Shown here: piece by piece, positions 10,906-50,826 of the stretch
Layout of the letters: the number at the start of each line of letters is the position of its first letter
How positions within the stretch are numbered: position 1 is the stretch's first letter
NCBI GenBank assembly: GCA_013203315.1
Contig: JABMQJ010000016.1
Location: 4,956-68,955, forward strand
Length of the DNA stretch: 64,000 nt
Reading direction: 5' to 3'
Source: Candidatus Omnitrophota bacterium
GTDB taxonomy: Bacteria; Omnitrophota; Gorgyraeia; JABMRN01; RBG-13-46-9
Position numbers and translations under genes: made by a program
Notes under the pieces: generated by a model
Seen by the model: only the letters and a program-made list of their open reading frames with translations
Told to the model about the DNA's origin: nothing
Database searches by the model: none

Positions 10906-10919
10906 ATTATATCATAATA

Positions 10920-10948
10920 TTGACAAAATAAGATATATAGAGTATACT
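10920..10948 (+). promoter_or_regulatory. Putative sigma70 promoter of the pilus operon (TTGACA-17-TATACT)
   Basis: TTGACA 10920-10925, 17-nt spacer, TATACT 10943-10948, in a 98-bp AT-rich intergenic gap; RBS 'tagggggtaaa' before pilT ATG. Confidence 0.45.
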
Positions 10949-11003
10949 TTTTAAGAATAGTTTGTTTTTTTGAAAGAGGCTTTAAAAATTTTTAGGGGGT
11001 AAA

Positions 11004-12089
11004 ATGGCGATAGATATCAAAAGTTTGCTGAAGATTATGTTGGAAAAAAATGCTTCGGACTTTCATGTCACCGCAAACACACCCATTCATTTGAGGATTG
11101 ACGAAAACTTGCATGCGCTGAACAAAGAAATATTGAGCCCACAAGACACAAAAGCAAGTGTGTACGCTATCCTAAATGACGATCAGATAAAGCAGTTCGA
11201 GAAAGACCTGGAGCTCGATTTTTCTTTTGAACTAAAAGATATTGCCAGGTTCAGGGTAAATATTTTTTACCAGAGGGGCGCTGTAGGTTGTGCGATAAGA
11301 CTCATACCTTATGAAATAATGAATTTTGAGCAGTGCGGGTTGCCTGTAAAAACGACAACCAAACTTTGCAAAGTGCCAAAAGGCCTTGTGCTGATTACAG
11401 GAGCGACGGGAAGCGGCAAGTCCACCACTCTGGCGTCTATGGTGGATTATATTAATAGCAATCGGCCTTGTCATATAATAACGATAGAGGATCCTATTGA
11501 ATTTGTGCACAAAAATAGGAAAGCTATTGTGGACCAGCGTGAAGTATATAAAGACACCCATTCATTCGGTGCCTCCTTGAAGCGCGTCTTGAGGCAGGAC
11601 CCTGACGTCATACTAATCGGAGAAATGCGAGACCTGGAAACGATTGAAAGCGCCTTGATAATCGCCGAAACAGGGCACCTGGTTCTTGCTACCCTTCACA
11701 CTTCTGATGCCGTGCAGACAATAAACAGGATAATAGACGTTTTTCCCGCGCACCAGCAACAGCAGATAAGAACACAGCTTTCATTTGTTCTTTCCGGGGT
11801 CCTCTCCCAGCAACTTATTCCGAAAGCAGGGAAGTCCGGCAGGGCCCTTGCTACCGAAGTTTTAATAGCAACACCTGCAATAAGAAGCTTGATTCGCGAG
11901 GGCAAGGTTCACCAGATATATTCAGTTATTCAAACTACGCAAAAAGAGGGCATGAAAACGATGAATCAGGCGTTAGCAGATCTTTGCGAAAGCGGTGCGG
12001 TATCGCTTGAAGCGTGCCAGGAAAAATCCACAAATATTGACGAGCTTTACAAATTAATTAAAAGTCCGGTAAAAGGAAAGGCGAGTTGA
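11004..12089 (+). CDS. pilT: Type IV pilus retraction ATPase PilT
   Basis: PilT-type N-terminus 'MAIDIKSLLKIMLEKNASDFHVTANTPIHLRID', Walker A 'GATGSGKSTT', Asp box/Walker B 'VILIGEMRD', His box 'GHLVLATLHT'; ~360 aa with no N-terminal MshEN domain. Confidence 0.85.
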   Translation: MAIDIKSLLKIMLEKNASDFHVTANTPIHLRIDENLHALNKEILSPQDTKASVYAILNDDQIKQFEKDLELDFSFELKDIARFRVNIFYQRGAVGCAIRLIPYEIMNFEQCGLPVKTTTKLCKVPKGLVLITGATGSGKSTTLASMVDYINSNRPCHIITIEDPIEFVHKNRKAIVDQREVYKDTHSFGASLKRVLRQDPDVILIGEMRDLETIESALIIAETGHLVLATLHTSDAVQTINRIIDVFPAHQQQQIRTQLSFVLSGVLSQQLIPKAGKSGRALATEVLIATPAIRSLIREGKVHQIYSVIQTTQKEGMKTMNQALADLCESGAVSLEACQEKSTNIDELYKLIKSPVKGKAS

Positions 12090-12092
12090 AAA

Positions 12093-12566
12093 ATGCTTCC
12101 GTTTAAACGTCTTGTAAAAAAACAACTGGGAGAATTACTGATAGAGCGCGGCGTTATTACCCGCTCGCAACTTGAAAAAGCACTCCAGATTCAAAAAGAA
12201 AAAGGCGGGCTCCTGGGCCAGATACTTGTTGTGTTGGGTTTCACAAAAGAAGAAGAAATAGCCCAGGCCCTCACCATTCAGTATGGTTTCCCATATCTGC
12301 CATTACAGAATTATGAATTAAACAAGGAAGTTGTCAAGCTCATACCCGAAAGCGTGTCAAGACAGTATTGCTTGATAGCGGTAGACAAGATAGGCGATAC
12401 GCTTACGGTGGCGATATCTAATCCGCTGAACACGAAAGCCATTGAGGATGTGGAGCTCCTTACTAAATGCAAGGTACAGGTTTTTGTGAGTACGCTGACG
12501 GATGTCGGTAAAGTCATCGAAAAGATATATGGAAAAGATAAAAAGCCGAAGGAGGCCGAGGGCTAA
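12093..12566 (+). CDS. Standalone MshEN / T2SSE_N-domain protein (putative c-di-GMP receptor)
   Basis: Two tandem 24-aa MshEN-type motifs separated by a 5-aa spacer: 'QLGELLIERGVITRSQLEKALQIQ'-'KEKGG'-'LLGQILVVLGFTKEEEIAQALTIQ', followed by a second GspE_N-like fold ('LIAVDKIGDTLTVAISNPLN'). No ATPase domain. Confidence 0.7.
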   Translation: MLPFKRLVKKQLGELLIERGVITRSQLEKALQIQKEKGGLLGQILVVLGFTKEEEIAQALTIQYGFPYLPLQNYELNKEVVKLIPESVSRQYCLIAVDKIGDTLTVAISNPLNTKAIEDVELLTKCKVQVFVSTLTDVGKVIEKIYGKDKKPKEAEG

Positions 12567-12574
12567 AACCAAAA

Positions 12575-14314
12575 ATGGCAGGCGACGCCTTATCCATAAG
12601 AGATCGGGTAATGAAAAGCCTCTGCGAGAAGAAACTTCTCGTTGAAAACGATATACGCAAGGCCCTTGAAATACAAAAAGAAAAAGGAGGCAAACTAAGC
12701 GATATATTGGTCGGGATGGGTATCGTGTCAAGAGGCGATCTTGTTTCGGCCATGAGCAAGGAACTCGGAATCCCGCCTATCGACCTTTCGCGTTATCAGG
12801 TTTCCCCGGAAGTAATAAAGCTTGTCTCTAAAAAAGTTGCCAGAAACTACCGCGTTGTACCCATTTCGAAGATGGGAAATTTCCTCACGATAGCCATAGC
12901 CGATCCGCTTAACGTATTTACCACAGACGACATAGCTTCTTTTACGGGTTGCAAAATCAGCGTTGTCATAGCAAGCGATAAAGATATTACTGAAGCGATT
13001 TCGCAATACTACGAAGCAGCGGCGCCGGAAGCCATAGAGCAAATTATAGATGAGATGTCACCGCAGGCAGGTGGCATAGAGCTACTCTCAGATACGGAGG
13101 ATACTCTATCCTCCGCGCAACTTGTGAAAATGATTCAAGAGGCACCCGTTGTCAAGGTTGCGAATATGATACTTGCAGAAGGGGTAAGGGCCAGGGCGAG
13201 CGATATCCTGATTGAACCACAGGAAGCCTCACTACGAATAAGATATAGAGTAGATGGTGTGTTGCACGAGGTCAAAGCCCCGCCGAAAAGAATTCACCCT
13301 GCGCTTATTTCAAGATTAAAAGTTATATCAAATTTAAATATTGCGGAGCGCCGGCTACCGCAGGACGGCCGTTTTAAAATAAAGATACAAGGCCGGGAAG
13401 TAGATTTTAGAATTTCTGTTTTACCATCAAGTAACGGCGAAAAAATTGCACTTCGGATACTGGATAAGTTGCAGGCTACGTTAGACCTTGCCAAGCTAGG
13501 GTTCGATGAAGGATCTTTGGAGAATATAAAGAAAGCCGCTATGAGGCCTCACGGAATGATCCTTGCTTGCGGGCCTACCGGTTGCGGTAAGACGACGACG
13601 CTTTATTCCATACTGAATTATGTGGATTCACCGGAAAAAAATGTAATTACCGCAGAAGACCCGGTAGAATATCAGTTGGAGGGCATAAATCAGCTAACCG
13701 TCAAACCGGATCTAAATCTTACGTTTGCCAGCAGTCTACGCTCATTCCTTAGGCAAGATCCGGATGTTATAATGGTCGGTGAAATAAGGGATTTTGAAAC
13801 CGTGGACATAGCGATTAAAGCGGCCTTAACAGGCCACCTTGTTCTTAGTACATTGCACACCACGACAGCGTCAGGATCAATAGTGCGCTTGGTTAACATG
13901 GGCGTGGAGCCTTTCCTTATTACCTCGAGCCTTGTTTTGGTTTCATCGCAGAGGCTGATACGTAGAATTTGTGAAACCTGCAAAGAATCGTACAAGATTG
14001 ACGAAGAAACCGCGAAGAAAATACAGCTAAAGTCCGGCGAAAAAAATATCGCATACAGGGGAAAAGGATGCAAGGCTTGCCAGAACACGGGTTACAGGGG
14101 AAGGGAGGCCCTCATAGAAACTTTGGTGCTAACCCCAGAAATTCGAAGGTTAATACTTGAAAAAGCAGAAGAAAATAAAATACGCCGGGAAGCGCGCAGG
14201 GCAGGCATGAAAACATTAAGGGAAAACGGAATAAAAAAGATTATAAGCGGTATTACAACTATAGAAGATATTTTGCGCGTAACAGTAGGAGACCAGGACG
14301 TTCCGGTAAAGTAA
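12575..14314 (+). CDS. pilB: Type IV pilus assembly ATPase PilB/GspE family (paralog 1)
   Basis: N-terminal MshEN-like region (spacer 'KEKGG'), GspE_N domain ('FLTIAIADPLN'), Walker A 'GPTGCGKTTT', 'VIMVGEIRD', 'GHLVLSTLHT', tetracysteine Zn motif 'CETCK...CKACQNTGYRGR'. Confidence 0.85.
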   Translation: MAGDALSIRDRVMKSLCEKKLLVENDIRKALEIQKEKGGKLSDILVGMGIVSRGDLVSAMSKELGIPPIDLSRYQVSPEVIKLVSKKVARNYRVVPISKMGNFLTIAIADPLNVFTTDDIASFTGCKISVVIASDKDITEAISQYYEAAAPEAIEQIIDEMSPQAGGIELLSDTEDTLSSAQLVKMIQEAPVVKVANMILAEGVRARASDILIEPQEASLRIRYRVDGVLHEVKAPPKRIHPALISRLKVISNLNIAERRLPQDGRFKIKIQGREVDFRISVLPSSNGEKIALRILDKLQATLDLAKLGFDEGSLENIKKAAMRPHGMILACGPTGCGKTTTLYSILNYVDSPEKNVITAEDPVEYQLEGINQLTVKPDLNLTFASSLRSFLRQDPDVIMVGEIRDFETVDIAIKAALTGHLVLSTLHTTTASGSIVRLVNMGVEPFLITSSLVLVSSQRLIRRICETCKESYKIDEETAKKIQLKSGEKNIAYRGKGCKACQNTGYRGREALIETLVLTPEIRRLILEKAEENKIRREARRAGMKTLRENGIKKIISGITTIEDILRVTVGDQDVPVK

Positions 14315-14317
14315 AAA

Positions 14318-16042
14318 ATGAAACAAAAAACACTTTCAGACAGGCTGCTCGATATTCTCCAACAAAAAAATCTTATAAATGCGGACCAGGCCAAGAAGGT
14401 TCTGAATATCCGCAAAAAAGAAGGGGGGAGCCTGGGAAAGATTCTGACAGGCGAAAACATTATAACGCATAAGGATTTAATGGTTCTTTTGAGTGAGCAA
14501 TTAGACATTCCTCCCATTGACCTCTCAAAATATAAGATTGATCCGAACATCGCGAAGCTCGTGCCGGAGAAGCTCGCAATGCAACATAACCTTATTCCCG
14601 TATCGAAAATAGCGAATACCATTACCGTTGCCATGGCAGATCCGACCGATATCCTGGCAATAGATGATATGAAAACCGCCCTACCCCCGGACGTGAGTAA
14701 TATCGATATTATTATTGCCACTCATAGTGACATCAAAGAGGCTCATGCGAAAATTTTCGGATCGCCTACAGAAGACATTCTAAAAATAGCGGTTGATGCT
14801 GATGTTGAAACAGTGGAGATTGTTGAGGAAGAAAAACTGGACATAGGCGAAATTACAGTCGAAAGTAAAAAAGCCCCGATTGTTAAAATAGTTTCGCTAA
14901 TATTAAACGAAGCCCTAAAGCGCAGGGCCAGTGACATACATATTGAGCCAACAGAAAAAGATGTAAGAGTACGGTACAGGATTGACGGTGCCCTGCGGGA
15001 AGCGCTACGACTGCCTAAAAAGAATCAGAACGCTATCGTGGCAAGGCTTAAAATAATGTCGAAGCTGGATATTACCGAAAACAGGGTCCCGCAGGACGGC
15101 CGTTTTAAAATAAAATCCGGGGCCAAAGGCATAGATTTTCGCGTAAGTATTTTACCCATAGCTTTCGGAAACAAGGTTGTTTTAAGAGCGCTCGACAAGT
15201 CGAATCTGGACATAGGGTTGGATAAATTGGGATTTTTACCGGGCCCCCTGGAAGCATTTAAAAAAGCACTGGAAAGGCCTTTTGGAATGATTCTTTTGAC
15301 CGGACCGACAGGAAGTGGAAAGTCTACAACCCTATACTCCATAATTAATAAGCTAAACACTCCCGCGAGAAACATTATAACGATAGAAGACCCTGTTGAA
15401 TATGAACTGGAAGGCATAACGCAAATTCAGGCAAACCCCGAGATAGGCCTTACCTTTGCAAACGGCCTTAAGTCCGTTCTCCGACAGAGTCCTGACATAG
15501 TCATGGTAGGGGAGATAAGGGATTTTGAAACAGCTGACATTGCGATTAAGGCATCTCTCACAGGGCAACTTGTCCTTAGCACCTTGCACACAAATGATGC
15601 AGTAGGAGCCATTACGAGATTGGTAGACATGGGCGTTGAGCCATTCCTTGTGTCTGCCAGCCTTGTTCTTACTGCCGCGCAAAGACTGCAAAGGAGCATA
15701 TGCCCGCGATGCAAGGAAGCAATTGACGTTCCTCGCTCTGTGCTTGAGCGGGTCGCTGGAACTAAAGATGTGGAGAAACTCATAAAAAGAAAGCCATTTT
15801 ATAGCGGAAAAGGATGTCCGCGTTGCAATAATACCGGTTATCTTGGAAGGGCAGGCGTTCTGGAGACGCTAACGATTGACGACGCGATAAGAGACATGAT
15901 TATAAGGAGGGCCTCAACGGAGGAAATAAGTAAGTACGCTATTTCTAAGGGAATGATGACTTTAAGGGATAGCGCACTGGAAAATTTTGCTGCCGGGCTA
16001 ACCACTATGGAAGAGGTTCTAAGAATTACTACGGAGGATTAA
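14318..16042 (+). CDS. Type IV pilus assembly ATPase PilB/GspE family (paralog 2)
   Basis: Same architecture as the upstream gene: MshEN-like N-terminus ('RLLDILQQKNLINADQAKKVLNIR'-'KKEGG'-...), Walker A 'GPTGSGKSTT', 'IVMVGEIRD', 'GQLVLSTLHT', tetracysteine 'CPRCKEA...CPRCNNTGYLGR'. Confidence 0.8.
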   Translation: MKQKTLSDRLLDILQQKNLINADQAKKVLNIRKKEGGSLGKILTGENIITHKDLMVLLSEQLDIPPIDLSKYKIDPNIAKLVPEKLAMQHNLIPVSKIANTITVAMADPTDILAIDDMKTALPPDVSNIDIIIATHSDIKEAHAKIFGSPTEDILKIAVDADVETVEIVEEEKLDIGEITVESKKAPIVKIVSLILNEALKRRASDIHIEPTEKDVRVRYRIDGALREALRLPKKNQNAIVARLKIMSKLDITENRVPQDGRFKIKSGAKGIDFRVSILPIAFGNKVVLRALDKSNLDIGLDKLGFLPGPLEAFKKALERPFGMILLTGPTGSGKSTTLYSIINKLNTPARNIITIEDPVEYELEGITQIQANPEIGLTFANGLKSVLRQSPDIVMVGEIRDFETADIAIKASLTGQLVLSTLHTNDAVGAITRLVDMGVEPFLVSASLVLTAAQRLQRSICPRCKEAIDVPRSVLERVAGTKDVEKLIKRKPFYSGKGCPRCNNTGYLGRAGVLETLTIDDAIRDMIIRRASTEEISKYAISKGMMTLRDSALENFAAGLTTMEEVLRITTED

Positions 16043-16046
16043 ACTA

Positions 16047-17264
16047 ATGGCTAGATTTAAATACGTAGTCAAAGACAAAGACGGTAAAACTGTAAAGGGA
16101 ACCGTTGAAGCCCAGGCAAAGGAAGGCGCGGTTCTTTCTTTGAGAGAGAAAGACTTGATTATAGTCTCCCTTCAGGAAGAGAAAGGGGGAGCGCGATCTT
16201 TGGGGCTATTTTTTCCTAAAAGGCAGAAGGTAAAAATAGACGACCTTGTCATATTTTCCCGGCAGCTGGCCACGATGGTTGATGCGGGCATACCCCTTGT
16301 TAGCGCGCTGGATATTCTGGCAGAACAGATTGAAAAACCGTCCCTCAAATACGTTATCTCGAAAGTCCACGATGACGTAGAGACTGGTTCAAGCCTGTCA
16401 GAGGCCCTATCTAAATATACAAATATTTTTTCAAATCTTTTTGTCAACATGGTTCGCGCCGGCGAATCAAGCGGTATGTTGGACGAAATCCTTGACAGGC
16501 TCGCTACATACCTTGAAAAAACAAGTAGCCTCCAGAAGAAGGTAAAGTCCGCTCTTGTTTATCCGGCGGCTGTAACAACTATGGCCATAGGCATAACCGT
16601 ATTTTTGCTGGTCAAGGTAATCCCGGTTTTTAAGGACATATATTCGGGTTTCGGGGCCCAGTTGCCTACGCCCACCATGGTAATACTTAGCATAAGTGAC
16701 TTTTTACGAAATTATTTTTATATCGCGATCGCTGCTATCATTATTTTCTTTCTTCTCATAAGCAGGTATATTAAGACTGATAGGGGCAAAACAAGATTTG
16801 ACCGCTTAAAGCTCAACATACCAATATTCGGTACCCTGGCAAAAAAGGTGGCAGTCGGCAAGTTTGCAAGAACCCTTTCCACGCTAATAAAGAGCGGGGT
16901 TCCGATATTGAGCTCACTTGAAATCGTGAGTAAAACCTCCGGTAACTGCGTTATAGAGAAGGCTGTAGACAACGTCAGGACAAATGTGCGCGAAGGAGAA
17001 GCTATCGCTGACCCCCTCTCAAAAAGTGGGATATTCCCGTCTATGGTTGTGCGCATGATTTCAGTCGGCGAACAGACTGGGGAACTTGAGAAGATGCTGA
17101 CAAAAATAGCGGACTTTTATGATGAGCAGGTAGACACGGCTGTAAGCGGCCTTACAAGCCTTATCGAGCCCCTCATAATAGCCTTTTTAGGCATTGTGAT
17201 AGGGGGCATAGTGATATGTATGTTCCTTCCCATATTGCAGATATCGTCGGTACTGAACGTATAA
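16047..17264 (+). CDS. pilC: Type IV pilus inner-membrane platform protein PilC (GspF family)
   Basis: 405 aa, duplicated GspF domains each with a TM pair ('LATMVDAGIPLVSALDIL', 'LSTLIKSGVPILSSLEIV'); follows the PilB genes. Confidence 0.85.
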   Translation: MARFKYVVKDKDGKTVKGTVEAQAKEGAVLSLREKDLIIVSLQEEKGGARSLGLFFPKRQKVKIDDLVIFSRQLATMVDAGIPLVSALDILAEQIEKPSLKYVISKVHDDVETGSSLSEALSKYTNIFSNLFVNMVRAGESSGMLDEILDRLATYLEKTSSLQKKVKSALVYPAAVTTMAIGITVFLLVKVIPVFKDIYSGFGAQLPTPTMVILSISDFLRNYFYIAIAAIIIFFLLISRYIKTDRGKTRFDRLKLNIPIFGTLAKKVAVGKFARTLSTLIKSGVPILSSLEIVSKTSGNCVIEKAVDNVRTNVREGEAIADPLSKSGIFPSMVVRMISVGEQTGELEKMLTKIADFYDEQVDTAVSGLTSLIEPLIIAFLGIVIGGIVICMFLPILQISSVLNV

Positions 17265-17290: not shown

Positions 17291-17319
17291 TTGACTTTTA
17301 GCCACTTGTGTGATATAAT
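17291..17319 (+). promoter_or_regulatory. Strong sigma70 promoter with extended -10 upstream of the major pilin gene
   Basis: TTGACT 17291-17296, 17-nt spacer, TGaTATAAT (TG at -15/-14, TATAAT 17314-17319); followed by RBS 'ggaaggaaggaagg' and the pilin ATG at 17360. Confidence 0.5.
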
Positions 17320-17359: not shown

Positions 17360-17695
17360 ATGAAAAAGCTAAAGAAAAAAGGGTTTACGCTCGTCGAAAT
17401 CATGATCGTTGTTGCAATTATAGGTCTATTGGCGGCTATAGCCATTCCTAACTTTGTAAGGGCTAGGACAACGGCGCAAACCAATTCCTGCATAGCTAAC
17501 TTAAAGCAGCTCGAAGGGGCTGTCCAGGTCTGGGCTATAGAAACAGGTGCGGGTGATACCGATGCCTCGGTGCTATCCGATTTAACACCGTACGTCAGAC
17601 GTTGGCCCTCATGCGGAACAAGCGCATATGCGGCGCCAACCAGTGCATCTCAAACACCTACGTGTCCACTCGCCAACACTGACCACGTGCTCTAA
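17360..17695 (+). CDS. pilA: Type IV major pilin (PilA-like prepilin)
   Basis: Class III signal 'MKKLKKKG|FTLVEIMIVVAIIGLLAAIAIPNF' (G-1, E+5), ~111 aa, C-terminal Cys pair (C..C) for the D-region disulfide, Ser/Thr-rich tail 'AAPTSASQTPT'. Confidence 0.8.
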   Translation: MKKLKKKGFTLVEIMIVVAIIGLLAAIAIPNFVRARTTAQTNSCIANLKQLEGAVQVWAIETGAGDTDASVLSDLTPYVRRWPSCGTSAYAAPTSASQTPTCPLANTDHVL

Positions 17696-17728
17696 GGGCA
17701 AGAGCATTTTGAAGGCGTAAGCCTGAAT

Positions 17729-17761
17729 AGGGGGTGATGAATTCATCACCCCCTATTTTTA
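17729..17761 (+). terminator. Rho-independent terminator after the pilin gene
   Basis: Perfect 12-bp inverted repeat GGGGGTGATGAA/TTCATCACCCCC (17730-17753) followed by 'tattttta'. Confidence 0.6.
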
Positions 17762-17775
17762 TATCTTTAATATTT

Positions 17776-26874: not shown

Positions 26875-29034
26875 ATGAAAAGAAAAAAGCATTATAAAAG
26901 CGGCGTGACGCTGATCGAGCTTATGATGTCGGTTCTCCTGGGCACCATTTTGCTAGGCATTGTCTTAGGCGCATGGTATTTTACCTATAGAAACTGGGCG
27001 CTTGATAGAATAAGGACAAAGAACAGGGTTGAGCTTCAAATCGCCGTGGAACGGATCAAGAGCGAGCTCAGGCTTTCAAGCACTACATACCTAAGCCTTC
27101 ACCCCGCAGGTGAAACCGAATACACTGCCATAAGTTTTCCGATGGCAGATTCTGACGCGAACGGCTTTTTTAGCTTAGACGGCGATGGGCACATCGACTG
27201 GGATAAGAGCGTCATATACCACGTTTATGATAATTCGTCGACAGGATTCACGGAGCTTAGGAAAACAGAGTTTACCAGCAACCACGACGTATTAGTTGTC
27301 GATGCCCAAAGAGAGACACAGCTTGCCAATGCCGTGGCAAACGGAGACGGTTCGAGTGGACCCAACTCAGCTAATGCAACTACTGAAACTATAGTCGAAA
27401 AACTCACAAGTTTTATCATAAACCCGCAGGCGCAGGAATTTGACGGGTACAGCCCTACTGCCAAAAAAAGCGACAACGTGACGTTCGGTAGCGTCAGGCT
27501 TACATCGGGAAATCATGATTTCAGGTTCGAGGTAACCGGGAAAAATACCAATAATACCGATCCGTCGGGATATAAATTTGGCATAGACACGCTTTCTATT
27601 TCACCGAGTGGCTGCAAGCAGGAAATGGAGGTTTACACGCCTCAAGCATCAAGTGGGGATACTAGCGCAAAGATCGGCCCCAATTTACTCTGGAGCGGAA
27701 ATAATTTTCAGCGATACAGTGCTGACGCAGTCGGCGACTATGCCACCTTTAGGCTATATTACGACAGCTGGCTTGAATCCAATTTTGATAATTCTGTAAG
27801 AGAGAATACGATTTTGACAGGTGACGATCTATCCGTGCAATTACCGGATCTCGATTCGGGAGAAGAAGTTACGTGGACCGCAGATGTTGAAGCGGGTAGT
27901 GTAAACGGCGATGCGGTAAAAGCGGATTTTCCTTTGACACTCGCCGGAATAACTATAAGAAATGTTATTTCCTCCGTCAACATCGATTCAGGCGGAAATG
28001 CATTTAGAGTCCAGTTTGACTCGCATTCTACTTCTCCCCTGACAATTGATGCCGCTTATATTGACGAAAGGGATTCCGGCGAAAATTGCGTGAATCCTCC
28101 GGTAACCACAACCCCCGGTGAAACAAGGATACAACTTTATTTTACCGACGCTTTGGATAATATTCTGCCGGGAATAACAATTCCCGCCGGTGAGAGCGCA
28201 TATTCGAATTGGGCAATTTTTCCGATTGATTCTTCAAAAAATTACTTTGTGACCTTCTCTGTATCAGGGGCCTCATTTGCAAGCCACTGGGCCGGGACCG
28301 AGCCAACTGAAACAAATTCATATTTGATGGGTGGCGATTATGCTGCACAGGCTGTGTGGTCTGATGTGACCCATTATCTCGTACATGAGTCTTTACCTCC
28401 CTTCGCCGACGAAAGGTACACTTCATCCGCGAATATTTACGCGCAGGCTTCGCTTGAGGTTTGGTCACAAAGCGGTAGTGTTACAACGCAGATTTATGAT
28501 ACAAAAATAGCGAACCCAGTTTATAGGCCAATGAATTATTCGAGCTTTGGATCTGTTTCGGTCTACGGTCGTTCAAGTGATGATTCCCTTATGAGCGGGG
28601 CATCGGCGTGGACTGCCGGATCTGTGACCGGCACAGGAAGATATGCGCAGGCCAAAGCAGATCTTTCTGTAATACCGTATTGGACATGCATCGATCATTC
28701 GGCGGCTATAAATGTCCCAGATTCAAGCTATAAAAATTCCGGCATGATAACCTGCTCAGGGGCGGGATGTGGAAAGTTTCTTATTCCGACTCAGGGCGTT
28801 AATGCGCCCTGGGTCGATAATATTTTAGTCACCTGGCCGGGAGAGACAACGATGTGCGACATAAGCGGTTATTTTGCGCAAGATTCAGACTACGGAATTA
28901 TAAAACTTCTTGTAGATGGAAATGAGCTGATAAAGGGTATGGAGTTTAATGTAACGGTTTACGAAGATTTTCAAGGTGCGGTCTATACAACAAGCCAACA
29001 AACTGAGGTCGAACCGAGGAATACCGGAAAATGA
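26875..29034 (+). CDS. Giant (719 aa) minor pilin / pseudopilin, Ser/Thr/Gly/Asp-rich, probable pilus-tip adhesin
   Basis: 'HYKSG|VTLIELMMSVLLGTILLGIVL' (G-1, E+5) prepilin N-terminus followed by ~680 aa of beta-rich, S/T/G/N/D-rich sequence; 4-nt overlap (ATGA) with the next gene. Confidence 0.6.
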   Translation: MKRKKHYKSGVTLIELMMSVLLGTILLGIVLGAWYFTYRNWALDRIRTKNRVELQIAVERIKSELRLSSTTYLSLHPAGETEYTAISFPMADSDANGFFSLDGDGHIDWDKSVIYHVYDNSSTGFTELRKTEFTSNHDVLVVDAQRETQLANAVANGDGSSGPNSANATTETIVEKLTSFIINPQAQEFDGYSPTAKKSDNVTFGSVRLTSGNHDFRFEVTGKNTNNTDPSGYKFGIDTLSISPSGCKQEMEVYTPQASSGDTSAKIGPNLLWSGNNFQRYSADAVGDYATFRLYYDSWLESNFDNSVRENTILTGDDLSVQLPDLDSGEEVTWTADVEAGSVNGDAVKADFPLTLAGITIRNVISSVNIDSGGNAFRVQFDSHSTSPLTIDAAYIDERDSGENCVNPPVTTTPGETRIQLYFTDALDNILPGITIPAGESAYSNWAIFPIDSSKNYFVTFSVSGASFASHWAGTEPTETNSYLMGGDYAAQAVWSDVTHYLVHESLPPFADERYTSSANIYAQASLEVWSQSGSVTTQIYDTKIANPVYRPMNYSSFGSVSVYGRSSDDSLMSGASAWTAGSVTGTGRYAQAKADLSVIPYWTCIDHSAAINVPDSSYKNSGMITCSGAGCGKFLIPTQGVNAPWVDNILVTWPGETTMCDISGYFAQDSDYGIIKLLVDGNELIKGMEFNVTVYEDFQGAVYTTSQQTEVEPRNTGK

Positions 29035-30191
29035 TTAAAAATAAAAAAGGCGCAATATTCATAACCGTTATGGTTATTTCCATGCTTATGATTTTGGTGG
29101 GTGTAAGCGCCTCAAACATGTTAATGCAGGATGTCCACATGGTCAAGTACTTGAAAAAATCCACGACGGCGCAGTATATTGCCGAAGCGGGTATAAACGA
29201 CGGCCTGGCGACACTAGTGCAAAACGGTTTTGCGGCCAAGGATACGGATTTTCCTTTAATTGATAATACTTTTGGCGGGGGAGGCTATAATGTTACTGTG
29301 AGCGAAGTAGGCGGCAGGGTGCTTCTAACATCGGTCGGCACTTTTGAGAGTATTTCGCGAACAGTTGCGGCGGAAGTAAAGGATAATACTGCTACGGCAC
29401 TTTTGTATATGATGGCATCCGGCACTGACTTAAGACTCAGGGCATTTTTTCTGGGTCTTGCGGATATCAATGGTGATCTTCATGCAAATAACGATTTGAG
29501 GTTAAAAGCACAGGCGCTTGCGCTTATTGACATAGACCCTTGTGGCGCCACATGTTGCGATGGAAACATCTCGGCCTGTAACAGGATTTTCCAAGCAACC
29601 GGATTTTTAGGTTTTATAAATGTTGCAGGAAGCACAACCGAAGGCATTACCGTTGCGCCGGTATCGTTTCCCCAGTTTGACTACGCCTATTATGTAGTCC
29701 AAGCAGTAGCCAGCGGTGATTACTATAATGGAGATACCGACTTCGGTTCAGTTGGCACTACGACCGACCTCACCCCAGGAAACGGTATAGTATACGTTAA
29801 CGGTACCGCCAATTTATTTGGAACTGTAAATCTAAACGGAGGGATCGTTGCGGATAAGATCAATGTCCGCGGCCGGTTAAACCAGATAAAAACAGGTAGT
29901 AAAAATGTTATTATCGCAAAAGGAAGCGATACCGGAGGCACCGAAGGCGACATAAGCATATTTTTTCGGTTGGATGTCGAAGAGGCCGTTGTTTTTGCTG
30001 CGCGCGACTTCAAGGTAGTCGCGGCTTTTTCGACTGTTGTAGTTACGGGTTCTCTTTTGGGCAGGAGAAACATAAGAATCTGGGATTTGCTAAGCAGTAT
30101 CACCTATAACCACAAACTTTTAAGTCCTACCGGAATACTTGGCCCAAATGGCGAAACCGAGCCATTCACAGTAGTTAGCTGGAATAAGTAA
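29031..30191 (+). CDS. PilX-like pilus assembly protein (PilX_N domain)
   Basis: N-terminus 'KGAIFITVMVISMLMILVGVSASNMLMQD...AQYIAEAGINDGLA' matches the PilX N-terminal domain; Gly/Thr-rich beta-repeat body. Confidence 0.55.
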   Translation: MIKNKKGAIFITVMVISMLMILVGVSASNMLMQDVHMVKYLKKSTTAQYIAEAGINDGLATLVQNGFAAKDTDFPLIDNTFGGGGYNVTVSEVGGRVLLTSVGTFESISRTVAAEVKDNTATALLYMMASGTDLRLRAFFLGLADINGDLHANNDLRLKAQALALIDIDPCGATCCDGNISACNRIFQATGFLGFINVAGSTTEGITVAPVSFPQFDYAYYVVQAVASGDYYNGDTDFGSVGTTTDLTPGNGIVYVNGTANLFGTVNLNGGIVADKINVRGRLNQIKTGSKNVIIAKGSDTGGTEGDISIFFRLDVEEAVVFAARDFKVVAAFSTVVVTGSLLGRRNIRIWDLLSSITYNHKLLSPTGILGPNGETEPFTVVSWNK

Positions 30192-48524: not shown

Positions 48525-49061
48525 ATGGCTCTTAGAAGGAAGCATGAGGTTCCGAAGGAAAAAGTTCTGGAGGTGGATGCAAGCATGCAAGGCACGCTTA
48601 CATTCAAAGACCCGGTAAACTTAAGGATTAACGGTAAGTTTGAAGGAAAGCTCCTCACGAAAGGCAGTCTTACAGTCGGCGAACACGCCGTTGTAAACGC
48701 TGATATTACCGGCGATGTTATAACTGTTGCCGGTAGGGTTAATGGCGACATCAAGGCCTCTGTGGAGTTGAACCTGATAGCGCCCGCGTTCGTTGTGGGG
48801 GATATAAAGGCTCCTGCTCTTCGCATCGCACAGGGTGCTATTATCGAAGGTTATTGTAACATGATTTCAGACAGGAAGGGCGGAGAACCCGCTTCTGACA
48901 TGCTTACGATTGACCAGGTTGCCAAGTTTTTGGAAGTTGACACGAACGTAATTACCGAGTGGGCTGATACCGGTAAGCTCCCGGCCGTCAAGGACGGTTC
49001 CAGATGGAGTTTTGAAAGATCTAAAATTGAGGAATGGCTCACAAGCGAAAAAATAAAGTAA
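48525..49061 (+). CDS. Bactofilin-domain protein fused to a C-terminal excisionase-family (HTH_17-like) helix-turn-helix domain
   Basis: Bactofilin beta-helix repeats 'GSLTVGEHAVVNADITGDVITVAGRVNGDIKASVELNLIAPAFVVGDIKAPALRIAQGAIIEG'. C-terminal 'LTIDQVAKFLEVDTNVITEWADTGKLPAVKDGSRWSFERSKIEEWL' matches the excisionase-type DNA-binding HTH (TIGR01764-like) pattern. Confidence 0.7.
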   Translation: MALRRKHEVPKEKVLEVDASMQGTLTFKDPVNLRINGKFEGKLLTKGSLTVGEHAVVNADITGDVITVAGRVNGDIKASVELNLIAPAFVVGDIKAPALRIAQGAIIEGYCNMISDRKGGEPASDMLTIDQVAKFLEVDTNVITEWADTGKLPAVKDGSRWSFERSKIEEWLTSEKIK

Positions 49062-49087
49062 ACCAGAAATAGTAACTTAATTAAATT

Positions 49088-49435
49088 ATGCCCGATAAAC
49101 TCTTTACGATAGAGGAGGCGGCTATCCTGCTCGGGGTGCCGGAAGACCGCATTAAAAAGCTTGTCAGTAACGGCAGCTTGCCGGCTTATAAGATTGGCGG
49201 TCGATTTCTTCGGTTCAGGAGGGAGCAAATAGAAGCTATTAGGTATGAGATTCATGATAAGTTTGGCGCCAAGGTGGTGGAGCGGGCCTCAAGGGACTAT
49301 CTCCAAAAAACCAAAGGCGTAGTATACCCGCAGTCGCTTCTCGATAGAATTTTGGATTTCTTTTATTTCAACGACTTTTATGTTGTTGCTGCCGCGCTGG
49401 CATGCTTGATTTTGTTGTTCATATTTAAGGGATAG
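49088..49435 (+). CDS. Tail-anchored membrane protein with N-terminal excisionase-family HTH domain
   Basis: N-terminus 'LFTIEEAAILLGVPEDRIKKLVSNGSLPAYKIGGRFLRFRREQIEAI' (HTH_17-like), C-terminal TM 'FYVVAAALACLILLFIF'. Paralogous HTH to the upstream bactofilin fusion. Confidence 0.55.
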   Translation: MPDKLFTIEEAAILLGVPEDRIKKLVSNGSLPAYKIGGRFLRFRREQIEAIRYEIHDKFGAKVVERASRDYLQKTKGVVYPQSLLDRILDFFYFNDFYVVAAALACLILLFIFKG

Positions 49436-50386
49436 ATGCTTAAGGTAACCTTTCTACGATTATTCCCCTTATGTTTTTTTATTTGCGCCATGACTGCTTT
49501 CGCCGACACGGTCTATCTGGAAAACGGCGAGAAAATGAAAGGCGTAATAGTAGAAGAATACCACGATAGGGTCGTTATCTCGACCCATGAAGGCGAAAAA
49601 AGTATTCTTAAAAAAGACATCCACACCATCTCCTACGATCTGGTTGAGCAAAACCTTGTGGTCCTTGGTGATTCGTATGCCGACCGCAATAAACATGGAG
49701 AAGCCTACTTTTATTATAAAAAAGCCGTCAAAATAAATCCGAAATATAAAATTGCGCGTGACAAAATGAACTTTACGGCAGGGCAGGCGTTCCGTCAATC
49801 ACAAAAAGAGAAGCGGGACGCTGTGAAGCGAAGGCAGGAGATCGAGGATTCATCGAGGCCCTTGCCTTACGAAGAAAAAGATTTTAAAAAAGAGCTTGAA
49901 CAAAAAATCGGTATAATCATCGCTGAAGAAGGCGATAGCGTAAAGATAATAAATGTTACCGATGACAGCGCGGCGGACGACGCCGGCTTACGGCCCGGCG
50001 ATACGCTAATTTCTGCCTGGGGCCGCTTTACCGATTACATGTCAAAAGAAAATGTAAGCCGCCTTTTACTGGAAAGTCTGGGCGAGATTAAAATAGATAT
50101 CCAGCGGGACGTCGTCTTAAAAAAAGAAAGCCCGGCTGCGATATTTTATAAAGATATTATAGGCGGAAAATTGGATATGCTAAGAGACGGCCTGACCATC
50201 GTGGATTTAAAAGAAGGGTCCCCCGGACAAGAGGCGGGCCTCAGTAAAGACGATTTGATCATTGCCATAAACGGCGCCTCGACTCGTTATATGCCGCTTT
50301 CGGATGCAATTAAGATAATTGAAAACAAAAAAACGGGCGCGATAAAATTTACCGTAAGAAGGGACGCGACTATATGGAGGAAGTAG
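49436..50386 (+). CDS. Secreted protein with TPR-like N-terminal region and two PDZ domains (no protease domain)
   Basis: Signal peptide 'MLKVTFLRLFPLCFFICAMTAFA', then PDZ1 'VKIINVTDDSAADDAGLRPGDTLISAWG' and PDZ2 'LTIVDLKEGSPGQEAGLSKDDLIIAINGA'. Confidence 0.65.
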   Translation: MLKVTFLRLFPLCFFICAMTAFADTVYLENGEKMKGVIVEEYHDRVVISTHEGEKSILKKDIHTISYDLVEQNLVVLGDSYADRNKHGEAYFYYKKAVKINPKYKIARDKMNFTAGQAFRQSQKEKRDAVKRRQEIEDSSRPLPYEEKDFKKELEQKIGIIIAEEGDSVKIINVTDDSAADDAGLRPGDTLISAWGRFTDYMSKENVSRLLLESLGEIKIDIQRDVVLKKESPAAIFYKDIIGGKLDMLRDGLTIVDLKEGSPGQEAGLSKDDLIIAINGASTRYMPLSDAIKIIENKKTGAIKFTVRRDATIWRK

Positions 50387-50388
50387 GA

Positions 50389-50826
50389 ATGGAAAAGAGG
50401 CTCTACAAGAGAACCCGATACATTGTCAAAGCAAAATTCCAGATGAAATATGTTGGCTTACTTCTTTTAGTTGCGCTTGCAAGCGCAACTATTTCCGGAT
50501 ATACGATATATTATAACTCATGGGTTCTTTTAGGGGAAAAACTCGCAAACGTCTACCCGCAGGGAAGACTCATGGAGATTTTTAAATCCGTAAACATTAA
50601 ACTGGCCGTTAGTATGGTTTTTGTTTCAATGATTTGCATAGGGATAGGGATTTTGGCATCACACAAGATCGCGGGCCCCGTTCACAGGATGGTAATGTTT
50701 CTAGACAGCTTAACGGCTGGCGATTACAGTAAGCGTCTGTTCTTAAGGAAGAAAGATGAATTGAAGGACCTGGCAGAGGCCATAAACAGGCTGACAGTCG
50801 AACTGGATAAGAAAAAAAAGGCTTGA
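50389..50826 (+). CDS. Membrane protein with two TM helices and a HAMP domain only (no output domain)
   Basis: TM1 'VGLLLLVALASATISGYTIYY', TM2 'LAVSMVFVSMICIGIGILA', HAMP 'IAGPVHRMVMFLDSLTAGDYSKRLFLRKKDELKDLAEAINRLTVEL'. Start at the ATG 50389 (RBS 'ggaggaag', after the PDZ gene stop) rather than the track's 50374. Confidence 0.6.
   Translation: MEKRLYKRTRYIVKAKFQMKYVGLLLLVALASATISGYTIYYNSWVLLGEKLANVYPQGRLMEIFKSVNIKLAVSMVFVSMICIGIGILASHKIAGPVHRMVMFLDSLTAGDYSKRLFLRKKDELKDLAEAINRLTVELDKKKKA

Follow-up and report, generated by a model that had tools for sequence, protein, structure and literature searches.

How is c-di-GMP (cyclic dimeric GMP) read by a pilus motor in which three consecutive genes all encode MshEN-type modules? 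Among receptor domains for c-di-GMP, only three are widespread, MshEN included, and the question is raised by a gene triad in a 64,000-nt stretch of DNA (hereafter, the window) from a Candidatus Omnitrophota bacterium (GenBank assembly GCA_013203315.1, contig JABMQJ010000016.1, positions 4,956 to 68,955). The triad consists of three consecutive open reading frames (ORFs) on the + strand (12093-12566, 12575-14314 and 14318-16042, with gaps of 8 and 3 nt) that encode a stand-alone MshEN protein and two extension-type ATPases (PilB1 and PilB2), respectively. A preliminary description of the window had located these ORFs correctly and quoted their peptides and their KEKGG and KKEGG spacers exactly. 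It had also proposed that pilus extension is under layered c-di-GMP control through all three modules.

The analysis described here leads to a different reading, which is held with slightly better than even confidence: on sequence grounds, an MshEN protein acting in trans appears to have taken over c-di-GMP sensing for an extension motor with two ATPases. The triad and its complementary decay, in which the sensor is intact and the PilB sites are decayed, suggest that the small protein is probably the sole sensor of the signal.

The stand-alone MshEN protein

The gene mshEN (12093..12566, + strand) encodes a protein of 157 amino acids (aa) that is 100% identical to the NCBI entry HQ549_04105, labelled hypothetical protein. 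The protein consists of a four-helix MshEN_N bundle and an MshEN_C/T2SSE_N1 subdomain, and by Pfam the T2SSE (PF00437) ATPase domain is absent. The match to PF05157 (MshEN), a model that covers the C-terminal T2SSE_N1 half, is 57.9 bits. The AlphaFold2 model of the protein (predicted local distance difference test score of 89.4) shows a four-helix bundle and an alpha/beta subdomain. The best Foldseek match of this model in the PDB is 5HTL, the N-terminal domain of MshE with c-di-GMP (E-value 1e-11, template modelling scores 0.76/0.84, root mean square deviation 2.3 A), followed by the PilF GSPII domains, the Xanthomonas PilB N-domain and XpsE-N.

The published c-di-GMP motif is the consensus RLGxx(L/V/I)(L/V/I)xxG(L/V/I)(L/V/I)xxxxLxxxLxxQ, present twice with a 5-residue spacer, and each guanine is contacted at O6/N7 through the backbone NH of Gly3 and that of the following residue (Wang et al. 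2016, PMC5013675). Among the mutants of Vibrio cholerae MshE, G11L shows undetectable binding and G40I binds 72-fold more weakly (PMC5013675, Supplementary Table 1). XpsE, which carries G11V, G40L and other changes, is a non-binder of c-di-GMP. A 2024 study of PilF broadened position 1 to R/K/L, all of which were tolerated experimentally (PMC11731258). In the same protein, GSPII-B (KLG... / LLG...) binds with a dissociation constant of 6 nM and GSPII-C with one of about 460 nM, and GSPII-A, which has a good motif I and a degenerate motif II (SLA...), does not bind c-di-GMP (PMC11731258).

The stand-alone protein carries an intact 53-residue c-di-GMP motif at residues 11-63 (12123..12281, + strand; QLGELLIERGVITRSQLEKALQIQ / KEKGG / LLGQILVVLGFTKEEEIAQALTIQ). 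Residues 11-34, the KEKGG spacer and residues 40-63 align without gaps, column for column, to R9-Q61 of V. cholerae MshE (5HTL). Motifs I and II both contain Gly3 (G13 and G42), Gly10, the Leu/Ile triad and Gln24, and their residues at positions 2/17/21/24 are L/L/L/Q and L/I/L/Q, respectively. Motif II opens with Leu, which fits the R/K/L consensus and is also found in GSPII-B. The mismatches to key positions are a Gln at position 1 of motif I and a Thr at position 12 of motif II. The residue equivalent to MshE D108 and PilF D266 is an invariant Asn (N110). The MshEN_C/T2SSE_N1 half is highly conserved too, including the stretches QYGFPYLPL and NPLN. Because its 53-residue site is intact and strongly conserved, the 157-aa protein is predicted to bind c-di-GMP, most likely one molecule in the mode of MshE and PilF GSPII-B.

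The three modules were scored with NF053729, the NCBIfam model of the 53-residue motif. The full-length scores of the stand-alone protein, PilB1 and PilB2 are 62.2, 38.7 and 32.0 bits, respectively (curated cutoff 38), which bears out the preliminary description in its choice of the stand-alone protein as the best motif match. The domain E-values (3e-17, 6e-10 and 8e-8, respectively) are all far above chance, and the match of PilB1 lacks model positions 1-5. N-terminal fragments were scored for calibration. The fragments of the binders V. cholerae MshE, PilF GSPII-B, Myxococcus xanthus PilB and PilF GSPII-C score 85.9, 63.5, 62.6 and 62.2 bits, respectively, and that of the non-binder PilF GSPII-A scores 55.2 bits. 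The fragment of Geobacter metallireducens PilB, counted neither as binder nor as non-binder, scores 68.4 bits. The stand-alone fragment (64.5 bits) falls within the range of proven binders (62.2-85.9), whereas PilB1 (43.2 bits) and PilB2 (36.6 bits, below the cutoff of 38) both lie under the proven non-binder GSPII-A. A score below non-binding N-domains had been named beforehand as evidence against c-di-GMP binding; such a score was found for PilB1 and PilB2, not for the stand-alone protein.

The two PilB proteins

The genes pilB1 (12575..14314, + strand) and pilB2 (14318..16042, + strand) encode proteins of 579 and 574 aa with matches to PF00437 (451 and 442 bits) and PF05157 (75 and 70 bits), respectively. 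All three N-termini of the triad are homologous to MshEN_N, but they are unequal. The degenerate MshEN_N region comprises residues 11-63 in PilB1 (12605..12763, + strand; RVMKSLCEKKLLVENDIRKALEIQ / KEKGG / KLSDILVGMGIVSRGDLVSAMSKE) and residues 9-61 in PilB2 (14342..14500, + strand; RLLDILQQKNLINADQAKKVLNIR / KKEGG / SLGKILTGENIITHKDLMVLLSEQ). In motifs I and II of PilB1, position 3 is Met13 and Ser42, position 10 is Lys and Gly, and the closing residue is Gln and Glu, respectively. The corresponding residues of PilB2 are Leu11 and Gly40, Asn and Asn, and Arg and Gln, with Ala at position 17 of motif I. Leu11 is the literal equivalent of the G11L change in MshE. Motif II of PilB2 is better preserved than motif I, yet has Asn at position 10. 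The claim that all three proteins carry the c-di-GMP pattern thus stands for MshEN homology and the 24-5-24 spacing; it fails for Gly3, Gly10 and Gln24, which are eroded in the PilBs, and the PilB N-termini retain only the spacing and the hydrophobic periodicity of the pattern.

The position-3 glycines lost in the PilBs would be those that give room for, and hydrogen-bond to, the guanine bases. Judged by their sequences, the PilB1 and PilB2 N-domains probably do not bind c-di-GMP, and docking (T2SSE_N1-type) is most likely the only role left to them. The best experimental analogue of these N-domains is GSPII-A of Thermus thermophilus PilF, which has one reasonable and one degenerate motif. It differs from them in its higher score and in having kept Gly3 in motif I. 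With the key glycines missing from the PilBs, the motif I glycine absent from all of their relatives (see below) and scores lower than that of GSPII-A, the proposed layered control through three modules was not upheld.

Both PilBs possess a Walker A motif, an Asp box, an atypical Walker B with the catalytic Glu, GEIRD, Arg fingers and four Cys, and both look catalytically competent. Pfam and the motif check agree with the original account of two full-length ATPases with Walker A/B and four Cys next to an ATPase-less MshEN protein. The Walker A motif is GPTGCGKTT in PilB1 and GPTGSGKST in PilB2, and GPTGCGKTT was found in 33/47 PilB1 relatives. The two proteins also differ in the His box, which reads TGH, its nearly universal form, in PilB1 (42/42 metagenome loci) and TGQ, rarely TGE, in PilB2 (14/14 genome and 35/35 metagenome loci); a divergent lineage (L038) has TGH in both PilB copies. 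In Geobacter PilB, the first His-box residue, H413, packs on T411 at the subunit interface, and H420 touches the gamma-phosphate (PMC5424180). The TGQ of PilB2 corresponds to the H413 position and therefore would touch inter-subunit coupling, not phosphate binding.

PilB1 and PilB2 share 45% identity over their full length. In a neighbour-joining tree (100 bootstraps), the PilB1 and PilB2 orthologs of 15 species fall into separate clades with moderate support (69 and 58). Together, the 45% identity and the separate ortholog clades indicate that the duplication is old, and a recent tandem duplication was rejected on the same grounds. The best-scoring model for both proteins is TIGR02538 PilB (631.3 bits for PilB1 and 621.2 bits for PilB2), although these scores are below its equivalog cutoff of 675.65. 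The GspE model gives 594.8 and 584.7 bits (cutoff 630.25), and TfpB (NF053534) gives 449.3 and 450.3 bits (cutoff 850), respectively. An assignment to distinct PilB/GspE/MshE lineages or to TfpB was rejected in view of the best model, the unmet GspE and TfpB cutoffs and the type IVa pilus (T4aP) cluster context. These results speak against both origins considered in the preliminary description, namely recent duplicates and distinct GspE/MshE lineages. The T4aP context applies to both PilBs, as pilT, pilC, a pilin gene, pilMNOPQ and minor pilins are present on the same strand. Since pilC, the pilMNOPQ set and pilT each occur once in the cluster, a single machine is presumably served by the two ATPases.

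Conservation, genomic context and links to c-di-GMP

The order pilT-mshEN-pilB1-pilB2-pilC-pilin was found in 15 Omnitrophota loci in a scan of species-representative genomes, with identities to the window proteins down to about 50%, and the identical gene string is also present on independent assemblies. A metagenome scan, for which the query was a narrow alignment of stand-alone MshEN proteins that leaves out distant ones, added 80 further loci. A PilB gene directly follows mshEN in 66 of the 68 metagenome loci with sequence available, and a second PilB gene follows in 41/41. The median gaps within these triads are 6-9 nt. Genomes and metagenomes together, the triad is kept in about 100 Omnitrophota loci.

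The motif residues are distributed unequally among these relatives. Gly3 is present in 81/81 stand-alone relatives in motif I and in 81/81 in motif II. The corresponding counts are 0/72 and 5/72 for PilB1 relatives and 0/40 and 21/40 for PilB2 relatives, and both position-3 glycines together occur in no relative of PilB1 or PilB2. Gln24 is found in 80/81 (motif I) and 81/81 (motif II) of the stand-alone relatives. Among the matches listed, 120 cluster representatives of the stand-alone protein were obtained, which are 134-221 aa long (nearly all about 150 aa) and show 55-100% identity. The stand-alone protein is conserved like PilT and above the PilBs; in one locus (L016), for example, the identities of the stand-alone protein, PilB1, PilB2 and PilT are 59%, 52%, 50% and 60%, respectively.

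The divergent lineage L038 encodes a 178-aa stand-alone protein with 41% identity, a close homolog of which bears the label Omnitrophica. The genes of this lineage are arranged as MshEN - PilB - PilB - PilC - PilS - PilR. The small protein of L038 has intact glycines, and both PilBs of that lineage have bulky residues. In two other species (L012:9880-12287 and L015:10317-12713), three genes are inserted between pilB1 and pilB2. Their products are a hydrophobic protein of 96 aa that is probably located in the membrane, a response regulator made up of a single REC domain and a protein of 533-562 aa without a Pfam match.

The PilBs of Verrucomicrobia are nearest to the Omnitrophota PilB1 clade in the neighbour-joining tree and are degenerate at position 3 (Ala/Leu). 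In a Verrucomicrobiae locus (L032:6990-7967), a 325-aa protein with TPR regions and a C-terminal PF05157 MshEN-like domain is encoded directly upstream of a degenerate PilB (RIA... / RLL...), so that an N-domain-like protein may have become detached in parallel here. Two WOR-3 loci (L021 and L022) contain an independent tandem PilB pair with pilT and pilC downstream, and a gene for a stand-alone MshEN protein is absent. Motif II is degenerate (MLA...) in the first WOR-3 PilB, whereas the c-di-GMP motif of the second is near-perfect. These tandem PilBs were rejected as orthologs of the Omnitrophota pair, given their separate branch, the intact motif of the second copy and the missing stand-alone gene.

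Stand-alone MshEN proteins are common in metagenomes, where 59 of the best 149 cluster representatives (50% identity) are <=230 aa. In Nitrospirota (L040 and L041, 8001-8630), a 209-aa stand-alone MshEN protein adjoins a small TPR protein, with a PilZ gene about 4.5 kb upstream. This protein (P0314) is encoded away from any pilus cluster, so a link to type IV pili (T4P) does not hold for the entire family.

Relatives carry c-di-GMP genes beside the triad. A gene for a HAMP-GAF-GGDEF membrane protein (about 475 aa) is located just upstream of pilT, or of mshEN where pilT is absent, in 11/14 genome loci and in 44/45 metagenome loci with upstream sequence (41 by automatic count plus three mis-anchored loci that bear the GGDEF gene). 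The loci of this comparison are L006-L009, L011-L015, L018, L020 and L043-L121. In a subclade, a REC-HD-GYP gene is situated between pilB2 and pilC (L014:5816-6946; L089, L099, L105, L108, L109, L112, L114, L115, L117 and L121). Its HD and HHExxDGxGYP motifs are intact in L014 and in 8/10 of the metagenome loci. The members of this subclade lack an upstream pilT, and their GGDEF gene lies immediately next to mshEN. The ortholog in a further locus (L019:1990-2892) is a 300-aa MshEN-PilZ fusion (PF05157 and PF07238, with RxxxR and NxSxxG present), which combines two different c-di-GMP receptor domains in one protein and has Ser at position 3 of MshEN motif II.

In the window itself, the + strand order is mreBCD, PBP2, rodA, pilT, mshEN, pilB1, pilB2, pilC and pilin. 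The gene pilT (11004..12089, + strand) encodes a 361-aa retraction ATPase (TIGR01420 pilT_fam, 472.1 bits, cutoff 319.1; PF00437), and pilC (16047..17264, + strand) encodes a 405-aa platform protein with two PF00482 repeats (223.5 bits; PilC/GspF models, 415-429 bits). The intergenic gaps from pilT through mshEN, pilB1 and pilB2 to pilC are 3, 8, 3 and 4 nt, respectively. Promoters and terminators were called by consensus scans only. A promoter-like site, TTGACA-17-TATACT, with 11/12 consensus matches (10920..10948, + strand) lies in the 98-nt RodA-PilT gap and is a possible start of a pilT-mshEN-pilB1-pilB2-pilC transcript. The major-pilin candidate (17360..17695, + strand; 111 aa, PF07963 N_methyl) has its own promoter-like site (17291-17319). 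One strong terminator-like hairpin, the sole one on the + strand, lies 3' of the pilin gene (17725-17758), and the consensus scan detected no strong + strand terminator-like site in the cluster upstream of 17725.

Downstream of the pilin gene are genes for a TPR/PMT-like protein and a GT2 glycosyltransferase, followed by pilM, pilN, pilO, a PilP-like gene and the pilQ secretin gene (20588..24905, + strand; PF11104, PF05137, PF04350, PF00263 and Secretin_N), an RNase G gene and three minor-pilin-type genes. The TPR/PMT-like protein, a membrane protein of 683 aa in which TPR and PMT_2-like regions were recognised, is encoded together with the glycosyltransferase between the pilin gene and pilM (17734-20563) and is kept at the same position in several relatives. 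The two proteins may have a role in pilin glycosylation. The RNase G gene is wedged between pilQ and the minor-pilin set (region 24913-30191). The minor-pilin set (26448..30191, + strand; PF07963 and PF14341) encodes N-methyl proteins of 140 and 719 aa and a 386-aa PilX_N protein. The 719-aa protein, described earlier as a giant minor pilin, is large for a pilin, not giant. Farther downstream (48525-50826) lie genes for a 178-aa fusion of bactofilin and HTH_17, another HTH_17 protein of 115 aa, a 316-aa TPR-PDZ protein and a protein of 150 aa with HAMP as its sole Pfam match.

Proposed model, alternatives and significance

In the proposed model, the locus would be the motor module of an Omnitrophota T4aP operon in which c-di-GMP sensing is split from the ATPases. 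The small protein is predicted to be co-transcribed, and is probably co-translated, with pilT, pilB1, pilB2 and pilC. Its inferred target, reached in trans, is the extension motor or the PilM/PilC docking site, and it would thereby couple c-di-GMP to pilus assembly. An adaptor function of the small protein, suggested in the preliminary description, may thus apply. By analogy with MshE, PilF and FimX-PilZ-PilB, extension would probably be promoted at high c-di-GMP. The suggested partnership of the receptor with PilB or the motor platform is based on operon membership, gaps of 3-8 nt and co-conservation.

Several observations weigh against this model. The full-length PilB1 narrowly exceeds the NF053729 cutoff (38.7 vs 38), and MshEN tolerates some deviation, to judge from M. 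xanthus PilB with its Asn at position 10. The Gln that opens motif I in the stand-alone protein, shared by 71/81 relatives, is outside both R/K/L (PMC11731258) and the relaxed set [RKPN]. The statement that Gly3 occurs in every binder leans mainly on the MshE mutants, XpsE and GSPII-A; GSPII-C, with three motifs and an ambiguous binding pair, was not used as evidence on Gly3. The comparison with the single PilBs from other phyla in the scan, whose Gly in both motifs favours the model, is limited by the retrieval of these outgroup proteins via the QIQKEKGG pattern, which is biased toward conserved MshEN. The canonical GG[DE]EF is present in only 12/60 of the GGDEF neighbours and SGDEF/AGDEF in 5, the rest being degenerate; to judge by these motifs, the neighbour is probably a cyclase in some lineages and something else in many. 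No GGDEF, EAL, HD-GYP or PilZ gene was detected among the ORFs of the 64-kb window scanned by Pfam. When the GGDEF proteins of relatives were compared with the window by tblastn, the only match, a weak one, fell in the HAMP part of the protein of 150 aa (50374-50826). The GGDEF gene of relatives is absent between rodA and pilT, where the gap is only 98 nt (10906-11003), indicating that it was lost or moved in this lineage. Elsewhere in Omnitrophota genomes, GGDEF domains and PilZ genes have been reported near giant genes (West-Roberts et al.).

The same evidence bears on the other explanations of the triad. That c-di-GMP is bound by all three MshEN modules, the small protein being a decoy or buffer and each PilB tuned individually, is quite unlikely. 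Such a model agrees with the MshEN_N homology and 24-5-24 spacing of all three proteins, the marginal NF053729 score of PilB1, the fairly good motif II of PilB2 with Gly3 in 21/40 relatives, and the binding that is possible with imperfect motifs, as noted for Bd1509 and Bd1596. However, neither PilB lineage has a motif I Gly3 (0/72 and 0/40), and the equivalent change in MshE (G11L) abolishes binding. Moreover, GSPII-A, with one good and one bad motif, fails to bind, and both PilBs score lower still. The reverse case, in which even the small protein would be a nucleotide-independent structural N1-type docking or spacer subunit at PilM/PilC, its motif being kept as the hydrophobic core of a four-helix bundle, is considered improbable. 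Many motif positions are indeed core residues (PMC5013675), the MshEN_C/T2SSE_N1 half shows high conservation too, no c-di-GMP enzymes were found in the window and the GGDEF neighbour is mostly degenerate. The PilBs, however, keep the fold and its periodicity while freely swapping Gly3, Gly10 and Gln24, so maintenance of the fold does not need these residues, which are nevertheless invariant in 80-81/81 stand-alone relatives. The PilZ fusion and the linkage to HD-GYP and GGDEF genes likewise point to c-di-GMP.

Other alternatives retain the small protein as receptor and change its effect. It could be a c-di-GMP-controlled competitor that takes the PilM/PilC docking site of the PilB1, PilB2 or PilT N1 domains and thereby blocks or switches extension. 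This model, to which we assign a small probability, is in line with the T2SSE_N1-type subdomain shared with the PilBs (PF05157, residues 64-150 in all three), with the position of the gene between pilT and pilB1 and with the docking of a PilZ adaptor on the PilB N-terminal domain in a related system (7LKM, among the fold matches). Its difficulty is that c-di-GMP promotes extension in the characterised MshE, PilF and FimX systems, although a competitor or switch role would be as compatible with the sequence data as activation. There is likewise an outside chance that the MshEN protein is a c-di-GMP-dependent selector of PilB1 or the His-box variant PilB2 at the single PilC/PilM platform, or that it drives mixed hexamers. 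If so, this would be a second-messenger-controlled motor switch, an undescribed mode of T4P regulation, in which the operon-encoded HAMP-GAF-GGDEF and REC-HD-GYP pair would set the local c-di-GMP pool. It is scarcely credible, finally, that the 157-aa ORF was miscalled as a gene or is one piece of a pilB that has been split or has suffered a frameshift. It resembles PilB N-termini, and some homologs are named 'PilB' by JGI, but an ORF of about 150 aa is present in about 100 independent loci at 55-90% identity and is conserved like PilT. A split or frameshifted pilB was rejected, as the ORF has its own start and stop and PilB1 has a complete N-domain of its own.

The favoured arrangement, a detached receptor with two ATPases, has partial counterparts in known systems. 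The MshEN domain of MshE (5HTL) and GSPII-B of PilF (8PDK) show the same two-subdomain fold and the same 24-5-24 motif with Gly3, Gly10, Leu triad and Gln24. In these proteins, however, the domain is the N-terminus of the ATPase and has an Asp at the position of N110, whereas in the Omnitrophota it is a separate polypeptide. Pseudomonas aeruginosa PA3740 (MshEN-xT2SSE_N1) is a small swarming-related c-di-GMP binder that also lacks an ATPase domain and was catalogued as an architecture of its own (Wang et al. 2016). It differs in its highly diverged C-terminal subdomain and in that descriptions of it come only from Beta- and Gammaproteobacteria, whereas in the Omnitrophota protein the T2SSE_N1 subdomain is canonical and the gene always lies between pilT and pilB1 where both are present. 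To our knowledge, PA3740 has not been described inside a pilT-pilB operon. The FimX-PilZ-PilB system of Xanthomonas and Pseudomonas also has a non-binding PilB (PA4526), which is signalled in trans via a receptor that docks on the N-domain. There the receptor consists of a degenerate EAL protein and a PilZ adaptor, in contrast to the detached MshEN module here, a copy of what other PilBs carry in cis. In Acinetobacter baylyi, PilB and TfpB are two extension ATPases of one T4P machine, as proposed here. The Omnitrophota paralogs are adjacent and 45% identical, neither is an ortholog of TfpB, and they form clades of their own with Verrucomicrobia PilBs nested among them; given these clades, the adjacency and the identity, their duplication looks separate from the TfpB case.

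As an architecture, the stand-alone MshEN protein is not new, as PA3740, the metagenome representatives and the Nitrospirota example demonstrate. In the literature, nothing specific was found on the Omnitrophota arrangement or on stand-alone MshEN in pilus operons, and no description was found of a fixed operonic triad with complementary motif decay. MshEN in pilus systems has so far been characterised as the N-terminus of the extension ATPase, and here it is retained as a protein of its own, encoded in the pilus operon, throughout a phylum whose members are mostly uncultivated and possibly predatory or dependent on hosts. Gly at motif position 3 and the NF053729 score relative to GSPII-A may serve as rules for sorting sensing from non-sensing PilB N-domains. 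If the proposed model is true, Pfam and JGI labels of MshEN or PilB overcount c-di-GMP receptors threefold in these genomes. The two PilBs would then represent a second, independent case of two extension ATPases on one machine, and the triad would be a natural 'split' experiment in which MshEN works in trans.

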